Positions 8,082-13,541 of a stretch of DNA of 58,458 nucleotides are shown here, piece after piece; the first letter of the stretch is position 1, and each line of letters begins with the position of its first letter. Location of the stretch: IMG/VR virus record IMGVR_UViG_2724679172_000006; one strand, written 5' to 3'. A program made the position numbers and the translations under genes. The notes below the pieces were generated by a model. That model saw only the letters and a program-made list of their open reading frames with translations, did no database searches and was not told the origin of the DNA. Origin of the DNA: a virus (lineage: Duplodnaviria; Heunggongvirae; Uroviricota; Caudoviricetes).

Positions 8082-8098
8082 ATATTTATTAGAGCAAT
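8082..8098 (-). promoter_or_regulatory. C1-repressor-type operator (15 of 17 match)
   Basis: ATATTTATTAGAGCAAT, reverse complement of ATTGCTCTAATAAATTT. Confidence 0.55.
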
Positions 8099-8604
8099 TA
8101 TTGTTGGTGGAGAAGCGCGTTTTCATACTCCCTGACCATTAACGTAAGTACGCCGTGACTCCTGAAAACACGCGCCACTTCAATCTTATCTTCCAGCGCG
8201 AACGCAATTTTACTTAGACCAATTTTCTTCAGGAGATCAATCTTTGCTGGACCGTCATTTCTGTCATCGGTGGCAGGACGCATAGATAGCAAAGGCTCAG
8301 CCCCGTTTGTTACGTACTTCCGCAGCCAGGCTCGTGTTTTATCCCTTGCGATCTCACAGCGCCCGGTTACAAACCAGACCGTGTAAACGTTAAATAACTG
8401 GCGCACCATATCAATAACCGGAGTGATGGGAGTATCGGTGTCACAGGCGAGATTAAACTCGTTCCAGTCCTTTGTTAATGCACCTTTACCTGGTGGCGGA
8501 AGCAAATGCAGTCTGTCTTCAGTTGCCTCTGATATTGTTCCATCAATATCGACTATGACGATATACGGACGTTCCTGGTGTGCGTGTTTATTGAAAATAC
8601 TCAA
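8098..8604 (-). CDS. HAD-superfamily phosphatase, polynucleotide-kinase-phosphatase-like
   Basis: DxDGT motif in IVIVDIDGTIS near N-terminus, size and layout of HAD phosphatases. Confidence 0.6.
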   Translation of the reverse strand: MSIFNKHAHQERPYIVIVDIDGTISEATEDRLHLLPPPGKGALTKDWNEFNLACDTDTPITPVIDMVRQLFNVYTVWFVTGRCEIARDKTRAWLRKYVTNGAEPLLSMRPATDDRNDGPAKIDLLKKIGLSKIAFALEDKIEVARVFRSHGVLTLMVREYENALLHQQ

Positions 8605-8676
8605 ATGCCCTCCTCATTGGACGAAAAAAATGCTGGTGGGCGCACTCCACCAGCATTAAAAGTGACGCTGTAACTA

Positions 8677-9939
8677 TCAGCGGACGTAAATAGTGCCGCC
8701 GTTCTCTTTTTCCCATGCATCGCTACGTGCATAGCAAACATCGAGAAGTCTTCTTGCCGCTGTTTCCTCTAAACCCAATTCGACAACCAACTGCTCATGA
8801 CGGCGGGTAACCACATCAAACAGGGTATGCAACCCTTTAGTTGCCAGATCATCAATGAATTCCGGTTCGAACGGCAGCTCTGCATCTGCCAACATAACCT
8901 CTTGCGCCCACTCAACTCGACGGACCAATTCCGGGCGGCGGCTTTCCATCTCTTTACAGATCAATTCATGGAAGAACTCTACCCAACCTTCCGGCTGGAA
9001 CTCGCGGAAAATTGCCAACGGCTGGAAGTTTGGCATCAACCATTCGTTGATTCGGATATCAATGGCATAGCCCATGTCGCAGCAGAACTGATAAGCAAAG
9101 TCCAGCTTAGAAACGATATAAGGACGCTCGTTATTGAACTCTTTAGGCGATGAGATCCCATAAGCCAGGAGGCGCGGGAAGAAGGAGATTTGCCCTAACG
9201 TCGGATGAAGTTTGCTTGCAGGGAAACGGCGCTCAGTAATGCCATACATTTCCTTCTTGAGCGTCGCAAATTTGGCATTCTCATTAACCAGCGCGGTAAC
9301 CTCTGCTTTTTTATTAGCAAATGCCACGCGCGCTTCGCTTGCATCTTTAATAGTTTTTTTGAGCTGTTGGTTAAGGTCGGCGACCTGCTTACGCAGTTCC
9401 TGTCGCTCGCTTTTAGCTTTGTTATAGCGTTTCTCAAGGTTAAAAGGATCAAGTTTCATGATCTCTTTATATTGAGATTTTAGCGTTGAAATCTGTGAGT
9501 TCCGCAGTTCAACCATCGCGGTCATTTCATTGAGTTTTGTTTCCAGCTCAATGCTTATACGTTCGGCATTATCAGCACGCTGGTTGGCGTCATGCGTCGC
9601 ATCGTCGATCGCGTCCTGTTGCTGGCGTTTCAAATGTTCAATTTGTAGCTGAAGCTCTTCAATTTCTTTACCCTTCAGACCGAGATCCAACTGCATATTT
9701 TCAGCTGCATCTACCAGGGAGTTATGGCTATCAGCTTCTGCGTTATAAACATCAATAAGCTGTGCGTGAAGCATCTCCGCTGACTGAACCGCATTATCAA
9801 AAAAACGCGCTGTGAGGTCATCACAACTAACGCGGCGTTGCGCGGCCCGGATGTTCTGGATAATGGCCGGGATACCGGCATTCAGGACGTCAGGGATAGA
9901 TACATTTTCGATTGATTGGTTTTGTGCTGAAGTGATCAT
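8677..9939 (-). CDS. hypothetical protein with long coiled-coil N-terminal half
   Basis: ORF track; heptad-like Q/E/K-rich region aa 80-220, globular C-terminal half. Confidence 0.55.
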   Translation of the reverse strand: MITSAQNQSIENVSIPDVLNAGIPAIIQNIRAAQRRVSCDDLTARFFDNAVQSAEMLHAQLIDVYNAEADSHNSLVDAAENMQLDLGLKGKEIEELQLQIEHLKRQQQDAIDDATHDANQRADNAERISIELETKLNEMTAMVELRNSQISTLKSQYKEIMKLDPFNLEKRYNKAKSERQELRKQVADLNQQLKKTIKDASEARVAFANKKAEVTALVNENAKFATLKKEMYGITERRFPASKLHPTLGQISFFPRLLAYGISSPKEFNNERPYIVSKLDFAYQFCCDMGYAIDIRINEWLMPNFQPLAIFREFQPEGWVEFFHELICKEMESRRPELVRRVEWAQEVMLADAELPFEPEFIDDLATKGLHTLFDVVTRRHEQLVVELGLEETAARRLLDVCYARSDAWEKENGGTIYVR

Positions 9940-9940
9940 T

Positions 9941-10159
9941 TCAAAGTTCCGTATTAGCTTGTGCTTCGGTCATTTTTCCTAAGTATGAAGGAGGAAGGAC
10001 TACGCAATTTGTATCCAGTCCCTCACCTATGGCAGCCTGTAAAATTCTGGCTAAGGTGAGTCTCTTGTTGCGATACCTGGTGATGACATGCCTGATACCG
10101 CCGGTCGGCGTAACAAAGGCGATCAGCCAGTAGTGATATTTCCGTCGGAATGGCCACAT
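9941..10159 (-). CDS. hypothetical protein
   Basis: ORF track only. Confidence 0.4.
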   Translation of the reverse strand: MWPFRRKYHYWLIAFVTPTGGIRHVITRYRNKRLTLARILQAAIGEGLDTNCVVLPPSYLGKMTEAQANTEL

Positions 10160-11631: not shown

Positions 11632-12239
11632 TCTTTAAGAGTCATCTGCGGAATACCTCCCATTTTCCCGCATGAAACAACGTCAATCTGTTCACGCGCA
11701 GACTGGAATAACAAAGGCAGGTGACTTAGATTTTTTGGCGTGCCGCCGGAGTGAACGCGTAGTTCTTGCGTAGCGTCAACGCCCACCAGAGCTACATGTT
11801 TGAATCCGATATGGAAAGCCAGGTTCAGAGCACCATATGCACTATTGCCGCTGGCAATTTCATTCTCATCTTCGCAAAGGCCGAAATGTGCGGACCAGCG
11901 CCACGCCCACCACTCGGGAGAATTCGTATTTTTTGGCTCCATGCCGCGTTCAGCCACACGACGGAAGCACAGAACGCCATCTCTGACTTCACGTTCTTTA
12001 ACATCGGGTAGTGCCATGCAATAACAAACACCACGGCGACGGCGGCCACGACCAACGCGCCGCATATTGTCTGGGGATGGATCAAGGGTGAAAAAATAAG
12101 AAGCGCGGTTAAGCCAGTCGATGGCCCCATTGACCGCTATAATCGGCACTCCGCGCGGCGCAACAAAGTTTGCGGCGCTTGGGCCACTGCCGACGATAAT
12201 AACGCGATCACTGCCTCTAAATTTATTCTTGGGAAACAT
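11613..12239 (-). CDS. Rossmann-like protein, DUF115/MptE-like or GT42-like
   Basis: [16 protein letters not shown] and [28 protein letters not shown] resemble the GNGPSL and SG..A..G...L.G.D pattern of DUF115/GT42 proteins; paralogue of next gene. Confidence 0.45.
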
Positions 12240-12799
12240 TGAATTGCACTGCTCCTACTTGCATTCAAAATATGTAAATCTGCGTGTTTTTTGCGGGTAT
12301 CCAGGAACTGCTGTTGCCATTTTGAAATAGACACCTGCGTTGGATTCCGTAGTGCTTGAGGGTGCGCGCCATGCCAATGAAGGCCGTTTTGCAGAGAACA
12401 GTCATAGCCGACTAATACCACTACTTCAGCCCCTGATTCAGCAGCCAGACTGATAGCCTGCGCGCCGCTATTTACCCCTTCCGCCGGTCCACAATATCGC
12501 CTGTACTCCAACGAAAATGATTTCGCCGCCGCCAGGTTGGCTGTCACTTTGCGGAATCTCCCTCCCGGTATGGTGGATCCGTATTGCTTCCACCATGACA
12601 AATCACCGGCGTATAAGGCATAAATGTCATCGAACATCTGCCAGGAATTGTTAACCGCGATGATTGAACAGCCAGTTTTTTCTATAGCAGCACAGTCCTC
12701 ACGAGTGAGTGACGGTCCGCTACCGACACAAAAAACAGTCCTAGTCGCCCTGGGTGGTATGTTCATTCTCAGCTGCAAATTCAGCCTCCAGGCGAGCAT
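12137..12799 (-). CDS. Rossmann-like protein, DUF115/MptE-like or GT42-like (paralogue)
   Basis: VFCVGSGPS..IIAVNNS and GVNSGAQAISLAAESGAEVVVLVGYDCS; 3-prime end overlaps downstream paralogue by about 100 nt. Confidence 0.45.
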   Translation of the reverse strand: MLAWRLNLQLRMNIPPRATRTVFCVGSGPSLTREDCAAIEKTGCSIIAVNNSWQMFDDIYALYAGDLSWWKQYGSTIPGGRFRKVTANLAAAKSFSLEYRRYCGPAEGVNSGAQAISLAAESGAEVVVLVGYDCSLQNGLHWHGAHPQALRNPTQVSISKWQQQFLDTRKKHADLHILNASRSSAIQCFPRINLEAVIALLSSAVAQAPQTLLRRAECRL

Positions 12800-12929
12800 T
12801 CATTTCAGCGATTACAGGGTCCACTACAGCATCTGTTTCCTGTTCATTACGCGGCATGACCGATGCCAGCGACTCATAATTAACCTTGGATGACACGATT
12901 ATTCTCCCGATGTTAAAGCGCACTACCAC
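12741..12929 (-). CDS. hypothetical small acidic protein
   Basis: ORF track only; overlaps start of neighbouring gene. Confidence 0.25.
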   Translation of the reverse strand: MVVRFNIGRIIVSSKVNYESLASVMPRNEQETDAVVDPVIAEMNARLEAEFAAENEHTTQGD

Positions 12930-12962
12930 AAAGAGCTTACATGCACTAATTAATTTATTATT

Positions 12963-13541
12963 TTAAGCAGCATGCAACCACTTATCGCCGTTCAATACTT
13001 GCTCAATAGCCTCACCCTTTTTAAGACTTATGTATTCCAGGATGGCGGTAATCGCTTGTTCTGCACCGTACGCAAGAACGACGTAGTAACCTTCCTCTCT
13101 AAGCCTGCGCATCCAGGCGATCTGCTCTTTCGTCGGGGCTTTACCATTTGGTTCTTTAAGCTCAATTCGCATGCCGTGATAAATACCGCATGCTTTATCG
13201 AGACTCATGTCCGGATAACCTTTTTTCTGCCCTTCAGCCTTCATTTTCCCGGCGGTTGCTTTTGAACGTTTCCCTCCGTTAGGCGTTGCATGCAACAGCT
13301 CATAGATGTCAGGGTGCTTGCGTTCGAAGTAATCAAAAATGAAAACCTGCTCGAAGTGCTCGCAATTTCCGTCGCGCAGGTCTGGGTTCTTTGCAAGTGC
13401 TGCAAGTGCCTTCGCATGTGGAGAAACTTCTTTTACCGGCGCAAGCGATAAGAATGGATCCTTTTTGGTTTTTGGCCTGGACCGCCCCTTATTTCGACGC
13501 TCACTAAAAGCCTGAAACTCTTCCTCAGTAAAGCGCAACAT
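12963..13541 (-). CDS. VRR-NUC-like nuclease domain protein
   Basis: Basic N-terminus and KGYPDM..GMRIELKEPNG..EQIAWMRRLREEGYYVVLAYG pattern reminiscent of VRR-NUC proteins. Confidence 0.4.
   Translation of the reverse strand: MLRFTEEEFQAFSERRNKGRSRPKTKKDPFLSLAPVKEVSPHAKALAALAKNPDLRDGNCEHFEQVFIFDYFERKHPDIYELLHATPNGGKRSKATAGKMKAEGQKKGYPDMSLDKACGIYHGMRIELKEPNGKAPTKEQIAWMRRLREEGYYVVLAYGAEQAITAILEYISLKKGEAIEQVLNGDKWLHAA

Follow-up and report, generated by a model that had tools for sequence, protein, structure and literature searches.

What does a compact block of minus-strand genes in the 58,458-nt stretch of viral DNA IMGVR_UViG_2724679172_000006 (Caudoviricetes; the whole stretch is hereafter called the window) do for the phage that carries it? 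A preliminary description, made from the sequence alone, had noted phosphatase, nuclease and sugar-transferase-like genes at positions 8098–13541 and taken the whole cluster for one nucleotide-sugar or nucleic-acid modification pathway, such as DNA hypermodification or envelope glycan alteration. We found that the window is phage P1: positions 8098–13541 match 78850–84293 of AF234172 (reverse strand) at 99.2% identity, and 18 further P1/P7-type phage-plasmid records match the same interval (97.8–99.7% identity, 95–100% coverage). The interval is the pmgM–pap segment of P1, a known sequence whose existing annotation reads mostly "putative morphogenetic function", and all nine of its genes (pap, pmgS, pmgR, pmgQ, ppp, pmgP, pmgO, pmgN and pmgM) lie on the minus strand. 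The open reading frames and motifs singled out at the outset are all present, namely DxDGT in Pap, LDLDTV in PmgQ, lambda-type phosphatase motifs in Ppp, GSGPS in both PmgO and PmgP, and a VRR-NUC-like core in PmgM; pmgS, pmgR and pmgN also lie in this interval, beyond the genes named then.

We propose, with moderate confidence, that pmgO, pmgP and pmgQ form an accessory glycosylation cassette, probably dependent on cytidine monophosphate (CMP)-activated 3-deoxy-D-manno-oct-2-ulosonic acid (Kdo) and most likely acting on virion proteins. Direct support comes from the folds, the paralogy of two of the proteins, conserved catalytic-type motifs, co-inheritance, the usual position in head modules, the presence of kdsB in P1 relatives and dispensability in the laboratory, and from these we infer the donor sugars, the acceptor and the biological benefit. 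While the locus and its genes are already known, the functional reading as a glycosylation cassette is new: in the literature we found no paper assigning a function to any PmgO-family member, and nothing relevant on DUF115 in phages, kdsB in phage-plasmids or sialyltransferase-like prophage genes.

Co-inheritance and transcription of the transferase genes

We mapped the P1 proteins onto ~45 divergent loci (numbered with the prefix L below), taken from three sources: contigs with PmgO homologues, a set of genomes with one per species, and viral contigs searched with a divergent first sequence. In about 40 of these loci, pmgQ is accompanied by a gene of the PmgO or PmgP type. Specifically, pmgQ stands beside a pmgP- or pmgO-type gene in all 14 genome loci with enough flanking sequence and in 24 of the 25 non-P1 viral loci; most loci contain both paralogues, and some contain only one. 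The loci span Gamma-, Alpha- and Betaproteobacteria, Bacteroidota and Gemmatimonadota, with hosts that include Enterobacteriaceae, Zhongshania, Onishia, Commensalibacter, Martelella-type Alphaproteobacteria, Brevundimonas, Methylophilaceae, Sinomicrobium (Bacteroidota) and Longimicrobiales. Among the loci examined, ppp, pap, pmgM, pmgR, pmgS and pmgL are confined to P1-like phage-plasmids. Since pmgQ accompanies pmgP or pmgO in nearly all loci and the other genes are found only in P1-like elements, the real unit is the transferases rather than the whole cluster. One half of the original proposal therefore stands, in that the three transferases form a conserved sugar-transfer module; the other half does not, in that the phosphatases and the nuclease co-occur with the transferases only in P1-like phage-plasmids.

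The composition of the loci defines this unit as one or two MptE-like transferases plus a GT8-like transferase, accompanied by variable tailoring genes, with the phosphatases and the nuclease as bystanders. The slot between pmgP and pmgQ, which ppp occupies in P1, elsewhere holds an S-adenosylmethionine-dependent methyltransferase, an FkbM-type methyltransferase or a fourth GT-A-like gene. Even within the P1 group, ppp is missing from the more distant relatives (L003, L116, L117, L119, L122 and L124), and in the P1-like phage D6 a ppp with 89.7% nucleotide identity (L262, 4990–5682) is found among lambdoid nin/ea-type small genes with no cassette gene, so that ppp appears to move as an independent gene. 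We read the three genes as a mobile, accessory cassette, and that pmgO, pmgP and pmgQ constitute a glycosylation unit is a conclusion we hold with considerable confidence. An orphan PmgQ homologue was also seen on a Pantoea/Erwinia chromosome (L265, 9001–9633), located between lpdA (pyruvate dehydrogenase genes) and acnB with no MptE-like partner nearby.

The regulatory layout of P1 agrees with this partition. In the AF234172 annotation, operators for the C1 repressor lie between genes of the interval: Op83 (Oppp; 12940–12956, plus strand), which has four mismatches to the consensus, is located upstream of the pmgN–pmgQ unit, and Op86b (10174–10190, plus strand) and Op86a (10223–10239, minus strand) separate pmgQ from the pmgR–pmgS unit. 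Our own search with the C1-operator consensus gave nine matches across the window, against 0.33 expected by chance, and recovered the annotated operators at 8082–8098, 10174–10190, 10223–10239 and 13847–13863. A terminator-like hairpin with an 11-bp stem followed by a T run (8629–8657, minus strand) is found between pmgS and pap. The transcription units are accordingly pmgL–pmgM, pmgN–pmgO–pmgP–ppp–pmgQ, pmgR–pmgS and pap, and the second is tightly packed, with successive overlaps of 59, 103, 19 and 4 nt. With at least three C1-operator-bounded units, the interval is a mosaic under separate regulation and holds no single pathway. In the lysogen the C1-bounded units are shut off, and they come on during lytic growth. 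The first description had placed the cluster in an early block, which is roughly right; a late promoter, LPpmgL, is also annotated upstream of pmgL in AF234172.

Predicted enzymes of the cassette

The two central genes, pmgO (12137–12799, minus strand) and pmgP (11613–12239, minus strand), encode proteins of 220 and 208 amino acids (aa), with the GSGPS motif at residues 26 and 17, respectively. Besides GSGPS, PmgO possesses invariant N50, D66, W70, S111, G131-Y-D133 and H141-W-H143, while PmgP displays GNSA, G153-V-D155 and an invariant H173. Comparison of the two families by hhalign gave a probability of 98.1% (E-value [E], 9.7e-14), and the invariant N, D, W, S and GxD positions are common to both. 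Sequence comparison thus indicates that the two proteins are real but ancient and distant paralogues, which bears out the initial view of them as tandem, DUF115/MptE-like and sialyltransferase-like relatives. PmgP is the most conserved member of the cassette, with 328 homologues of which the majority are >50% identical. The PmgO-family profile matched 7,682 clusters at E ≤ 1e-3 and 495 at E ≤ 1e-30, counted as representatives at 50% identity.

PmgO and PmgP adopt a fold of the type seen in MptE, GT42 or the central domain of Maf, and precomputed matches to the Pfam family MptE-like (PF01973) exist for many of their homologues. Their closest fold relative is Maf, a protein O-glycosyltransferase; SteA, thiamine pyrophosphokinases and GT29 sialyltransferases were also noted among the relatives. 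The structure model of PmgO was built for this protein on its own. Against the PDB, the PmgO profile matched CstII weakly (E 0.19–0.6) and over two motifs only (GNGPSL and SG..LG..L.G.D), a single-sequence search of the PDB with PmgO yielded no significant match, and a PmgP-family profile search run beside the PDB searches of PmgO and PmgQ yielded none.

Among characterized systems, the Maf flagellin O-glycosyltransferases (PF01973 core; 5mu5) share the N-terminal GxGPS-type motif with PmgO and PmgP. Maf is a cytoplasmic enzyme that uses CMP-activated nonulosonic acid and accepts CMP-Kdo in E. coli (PMC11339370). It differs in having ~600 aa with extra N- and C-terminal domains, whereas PmgO and PmgP correspond to a ~190-aa core only; unlike Maf, they occur as a paralogous pair or a fusion, are encoded by phages, are unlinked to flagellar genes and fall under the Pfam cut-off. 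In the loci examined we saw neither flagellar genes nor genes for nonulosonate synthesis; only kdsB was found, in some P1 relatives. The GT42 enzymes Cst-I and Cst-II of Campylobacter jejuni carry motifs (GNGPSL and SG..LG..I.L.G.D) that align with the PmgO profile, but at the sequence level the similarity reaches an E of only ~0.2, and the lid region is much shorter.

Several features concern the boundaries of the two genes. The first ~20 codons of the annotated pmgO (window 12739–12799) are unconserved in homologues and modeled with low confidence; for these reasons, the ~20-aa N-terminus is probably not part of PmgO and the true start is internal, e.g., at Met12, which would shorten the overlap with pmgN (12741–12929, minus strand), a small open reading frame that matches phrog_2350 and is the first gene of the unit. 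The overlap of pmgO with pmgP, put at about 100 nt in the preliminary description, measures 103 nt; across loci it ranges from 16 to 118 nt and looks like ordinary translational coupling combined with weak conservation of the PmgO tail. Within this overlap, at 12221–12227 (minus strand, pmgO frame), P1 has the canonical −1 slippery heptamer A_AAT_TTA. We rejected a programmed −1 frameshift joining PmgO to PmgP: of 22 loci, about half, the P1-like L135 among them, have either no slippery heptamer or a non-homologous one. The heptamer is not kept in relatives and is probably a chance occurrence.

Fused forms are also found in the family. One phage (L006) encodes an in-frame PmgO–PmgP fusion followed by PmgQ, and tandem PmgO–PmgO proteins occur. 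Other PmgO-family members are joined to Big_1/Big_13 Ig-like domains or to a TylF-type O-methyltransferase (P0310, P0391, P0302, P0322, P0346 and P0382, together with the tandem forms).

The third cassette gene, pmgQ (10241–10942, minus strand), encodes a protein of 233 aa with LDLDTV at residue 78. Its AlphaFold2 model, built on 106 homologues, has a predicted local distance difference test (pLDDT) score of 95.4. In a Foldseek search of the PDB, the top matches were AgtA (6mw5; E 1.4e-8), glycogenin, LgtC, GlyE and WbbM, all with E from 1e-8 to 1e-7, and nearly all of the top 50 matches were GT8 or related enzymes. Across the 106 homologues, D79 and D81 never vary, and conservation of H208, G209 and P211 is 90% or higher. 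The H208-G-x-P211 segment resembles the HxxGxxKPW metal-ligand motif of GT8, and its histidine may be equivalent to the GT8 metal ligand. PmgQ also matches phrog_1962 ("glycosyltransferase") with an E of 1.1e-127, and a single-sequence phmmer search of the PDB returned a weak match to AgtA (6mw5; E 0.089) and nothing significant. Compared with the GT8 enzymes (glycogenin, LgtC and GlyE) and the GT77 enzyme AgtA, several of which act on protein-linked glycans, PmgQ displays the same GT-A fold (template modeling score of ~0.55–0.6), a DxD motif and His-Gly-x-Pro, but it is smaller and only 12–17% identical. Judged by its model, PmgQ is predicted to be a GT8-like retaining GT-A glycosyltransferase, in line with the possibility raised initially for the DxD protein.

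Donor, acceptor and competing explanations

Which sugar would PmgO and PmgP transfer? To our knowledge, CMP-Kdo is the sole CMP-sugar made by E. coli K-12, the laboratory host of P1, which makes no CMP-sialic acid. For this reason, CMP-Kdo is the most plausible donor in P1 hosts, and the label "alpha-2,3-sialyltransferase" that PHROG and RefSeq attach to pmgO is unlikely to be literally correct. Maf enzymes expressed in E. coli draw on the cell's own CMP-Kdo to O-glycosylate Ser/Thr with Kdo (PMC11339370). A true kdsB, encoding CMP-Kdo synthetase, lies in the same block of a P1 relative (L003, 12658–13425; TIGR00466 at 270 bits vs a 155-bit cut-off), and homologues with 33–51% identity are found in L122 (13198–13908), L124 (13659–14363) and L117 (11154–11845, where the gene appears split in two), in each case downstream of the pmgS homologue. 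All four carriers are distant P1-like phage-plasmids without ppp. We tentatively name Kdo, taken from CMP-Kdo, as the sugar that PmgO and PmgP may transfer. A functional link between pap and kdsB was considered but is not established: pap shares 4 nt with kdsB in L003, but no pap homologue was detected beside kdsB in L117, L122 or L124.

Tailoring genes add to the picture. A sugar-type methyltransferase or a fourth GT-A is present in many of the ~40 loci. One PmgO homologue includes a TylF-type domain (sugar O-methyltransferase) in the same polypeptide, and the cassette-linked methyltransferases (FkbM and TylF) are of kinds that O-methylate sugars. In one locus (L005), a GT9-like (heptosyltransferase-like) gene follows the PmgO homologue.

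The acceptor was approached through genomic position. In 13 loci (L097, L100, L105, L108, L109, L114, L120, L123, L125, L126, L127, L263 and L264), the cassette comes immediately after the gene for an HK97-type major capsid protein (PF05065), shares its strand and is followed by head-completion/connector genes. Elsewhere it follows the gene for TerL (L098) or the portal protein (L112 and L113) or precedes a terminase gene (L107 and L110), and in P1 it is located between the baseplate/tail operon and pmgR. Outside phages, Pseudescherichia chromosomes have the three cassette genes interleaved with Big_1 inverse-autotransporter adhesin genes, and one PmgO homologue is fused to Big_1/Big_13 domains. 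The position by head genes, the adhesin context and the kinship with Maf together favor a protein acceptor, which in phages would be a virion protein; this assignment to a protein or virion protein is a possibility that we advance with some reserve. The non-phage island itself (L092, 2235–16419; also L091 and L093–L095; Pseudescherichia and other Enterobacteriaceae chromosomes) carries the pmgO/pmgP/pmgQ-like genes among four Big_1/invasin-type proteins, with a pmgO homologue starting 60 nt after a gene for a 1178-aa inverse autotransporter. Islands of this type may be adhesin glycosylation systems.

Taken as a mechanism, the functional core would be the pmgN–pmgO–pmgP–(ppp)–pmgQ operon. PmgO and PmgP would be paralogous "mini-Maf" enzymes of ~190 aa, with an MptE-like/GT42-like fold and a GxGPS nucleotide-binding motif, whose most likely activity is transfer of an ulosonic acid from its CMP-activated form; for enterobacteria, Kdo from the host CMP-Kdo pool would be the most plausible choice. 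PmgQ, as a GT8-like retaining transferase with DxD and His metal ligands, would most likely add a hexose from a uridine diphosphate (UDP)-sugar. During lytic growth the cassette products would act together in the cytoplasm to assemble a short glycan, which in other phages would in addition undergo O-methylation or extension by a fourth glycosyltransferase. The most likely acceptor would be a protein, probably a virion (capsid or tail) protein, with the glycan serving as a non-essential surface decoration.

The nearest precedent for such a decoration comes from mycobacteriophages (Che8, Rita; Freeman 2023), where non-essential phage glycosyltransferases decorate capsid and tail-tube proteins, sometimes together with methyltransferases (cited in PMC11256854 and PMC12619734). 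Like those systems, the cassette is accessory and often resides in the structural gene block with methyltransferases; it differs in enzyme families and in hosts (actinobacteria in the case of the mycobacteriophages).

Several observations weigh against glycosylation of virion proteins by these enzymes. P1 PmgO (23.4 bits) and PmgP (20.9 bits) both score under the 34.6-bit cut-off of PF01973, which is cleared by the PmgP half of the fusion protein P0051 (44.6 bits), and PmgQ has no Pfam or NCBIfam match at E ≤ 0.1, including Glyco_transf_8. The presence of kdsB is limited to one clade of P1 relatives. All 80 closest relatives of one cassette-linked capsid are without the cassette, which is therefore an accessory insert and no fixed component of that lineage, and its placement after the capsid gene may in part come from a site that tolerates insertions. 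The cassette-linked capsids all end in Ser-rich tips, whereas the 80 closest cassette-free capsids end mostly in Thr, Ala or Pro, with one subclade ending in GSGS; as a glycosylation signature this weak difference among related sequences is suggestive only. Glycans are unreported in published P1 virion mass spectrometry, which did not look for them. Finally, a minority of loci hold the cassette by lysis/tail-spike genes (L006 and L101), which is the classic neighborhood of cell-surface conversion genes, or at the end of the tail module (L005).

The last point leads to the main rival, namely that the cassette modifies the host envelope (the lipopolysaccharide [LPS] core or another surface glycan), with Kdo-type residues added by PmgO and PmgP and a hexose by PmgQ. 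The LPS core is the receptor of P1, and such a change would mask the receptor in lytic growth, so that superinfection, or the number of progeny lost to cell debris, would be limited. LPS core synthesis typically involves GT8, GT9 and Kdo, which further counts against a virion acceptor: the GT8 relatives of PmgQ include the lipooligosaccharide/LPS enzymes LgtC and WbbM, the GT9-like gene of L005 and the kdsB of P1 relatives fit the same chemistry, and every host seen belongs to a diderm, LPS-bearing phylum. In addition, a faint precomputed match to WaaZ_KDO_III was recorded on P0051, but it is absent from a direct hmmscan at E ≤ 0.1, and we rejected kinship with WaaZ (KdoIII transferase). Seroconversion glycosyltransferases (gtrABC type) are likewise phage-borne accessory sugar transferases, and some cassette loci lie near tail-spike/lysis genes; however, seroconversion genes are active in lysogens and some of them encode membrane proteins, whereas the P1 operon sits behind a C1 operator and is off in lysogens, its products are soluble, and the cassette is mostly found inside late head modules. 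Further, most of the divergent loci hold the cassette co-directionally within the head-gene module, its closest fold relative, Maf, modifies protein, and the chromosomal copies flank adhesin genes rather than LPS clusters. On balance we regard the envelope as an unlikely target, yet the one to be taken most seriously after virion proteins.

A second possibility is that PmgO and PmgP are pyrophosphokinase-type enzymes (MptE-like or thiamine-pyrophosphokinase-like) that activate a small molecule, with PmgQ acting on the product or independently. The sole Pfam family that the two proteins match is indeed named for MptE, but the GxGPS and SG...G.D motifs align with CstII, and the constant linkage to a GT-A transferase, sugar-type methyltransferases and kdsB points away from this activity, which we consider quite improbable.

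A structural or assembly role in head morphogenesis, with no enzymatic glycan chemistry, is what the historical annotations imply (pmg, "putative morphogenetic function", in P1; hdm, "head morphogenesis", in P7), and the adjoining pmgR, which acts in head–tail joining, and the head modules of other loci are in keeping with it. Single knock-outs of pmgO, pmgP, pmgQ, ppp, pap, pmgM and pmgS, and their knock-down by CRISPR interference (CRISPRi), showed no plating or anti-restriction phenotype (PMC9024508, PMC10695390), and none of the products of these cassette genes and neighbors is in the P1 virion proteome. Dispensability combined with absence from the virion proteome fits non-structural enzymes that make a dispensable decoration, unlike the "morphogenetic" label, and the models are enzyme folds with invariant catalytic-type residues; a purely structural role is therefore very improbable.

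P1 DNA is cut by ordinary restriction enzymes and is known to carry only methylation. The original suggestion that the whole cluster serves DNA hypermodification or another nucleotide-sugar-dependent modification of nucleic acids is hardly credible, even though phage glycosyltransferases can decorate DNA (PMC12619734) and a nuclease and phosphatases lie nearby: Pfam, PHROG and NCBIfam searches revealed no hydroxymethylase, DpdA-like or other base-modifying enzyme in the region's 10 proteins, it is only in P1-like elements that the nuclease and phosphatases accompany the transferases, the units are separately operator-bounded with a hairpin before pap, the usual context is head genes, and the fold relatives act on proteins or glycans.

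If we return to glycosylation of virion proteins and extend it to its full reach, P1 and thousands of Gram-negative phages and prophages would O-glycosylate their own virion proteins by means of a mini-Maf and a GT8-like enzyme, with a Kdo-containing glycan. This generalization is speculative, and we doubt that it holds in full; if it did, it would be the first virion glycosylation system outside actinobacteriophages and would mean that natural protein-linked Kdo has been hidden for decades in a much-used laboratory phage. P1 is a standard genetic tool with about a fifth of its genes lacking a function, and three of these now receive a specific, testable one. Were the acceptor the virion, phage glycan shields would extend from mycobacteriophages to Gram-negative phages, with a bearing on phage therapy (antibody recognition and particle stability), and compact Maf-like enzymes might be of use in E. 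coli glyco-engineering; were it LPS, phages would have a new route to receptor masking during lytic growth. The analysis also corrects the database labels "alpha-2,3-sialyltransferase" and "head morphogenesis".

Neighboring genes and other features of the window

The remaining genes, ppp, pap, pmgM, pmgR and pmgS, are independent neighbors of the cassette. The families first suggested for three of them, HAD, lambda-type phosphatase and VRR-NUC, were borne out by matches to HAD_PNKP, Metallophos and 4qbl, respectively. The ppp gene (10939–11631, minus strand), in the variable slot between pmgP and pmgQ, encodes a lambda-PP/NinI-type Ser/Thr phosphatase with the motifs GDLHG, GDLIDRG and GNHE; it matches Metallophos (E 8.7e-16; 59.4 bits vs a 21.5-bit cut-off) and phrog_246 ("NinI-like"; E 2e-112) and stays under the cut-off of the NCBIfam PrpA/PrpB equivalogs (270 vs 326 bits). 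The pap gene (8098–8604, minus strand), restricted to the P1 lineage, encodes a stand-alone HAD phosphatase of the polynucleotide-kinase-phosphatase type (168 aa) with DIDGT at residue 19 and no kinase domain. Pap matches HAD_PNKP (PF25109) with 46 bits (E 7.8e-12; cut-off of 27.6 bits), phrog_415 (E 3.3e-57) and Pnkp1 (4xrp; E 1.2e-3).

The nuclease gene pmgM (12963–13541, minus strand), also found in the P1 lineage only, forms a separate unit with pmgL. PmgM is a VRR-NUC nuclease of the Holliday-junction-resolvase type that matches the solved VRR-NUC protein 4qbl (E 1.3e-17) and phrog_5702 (E 4.8e-27), possesses the motif D111...E127-L-K129 (PD-(D/E)xK core) and scores slightly under the cut-off of Pfam VRR_NUC (21.2 vs 23.8 bits). 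Two further genes lie outside the cassette. One is pmgR (9941–10159, minus strand), seen only in P1-like loci, which is essential for head–tail joining (PMC9024508); the other is pmgS (8677–9939, minus strand), a P1-lineage-specific gene for a coiled-coil protein that belongs to phrog_1660 and whose remaining matches reflect coiled-coil similarity only. PADLOC defense models run against the region produced only coiled-coil noise on PmgS. For pmgN, CRISPRi knock-down lowers plating, possibly through a polar effect, and the knock-out is viable (PMC10695390).

Beyond the interval, pmgL (13544–13789) matches phrog_54, a DksA-like zinc-finger family (E 1.7e-13), which hints at a transcription-related rather than a morphogenetic role. 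Three minus-strand tRNA genes at 21383–21458, 23086–23161 and 23164–23239, with the anticodons CAT, TGT and GTT, fit the known set of P1, the CAT-anticodon tRNA being trnI in the P1 annotation. At 46001–48000, the G+C content falls to 0.368, compared with ~0.47 elsewhere in the window, and the GC skew is strongly positive.

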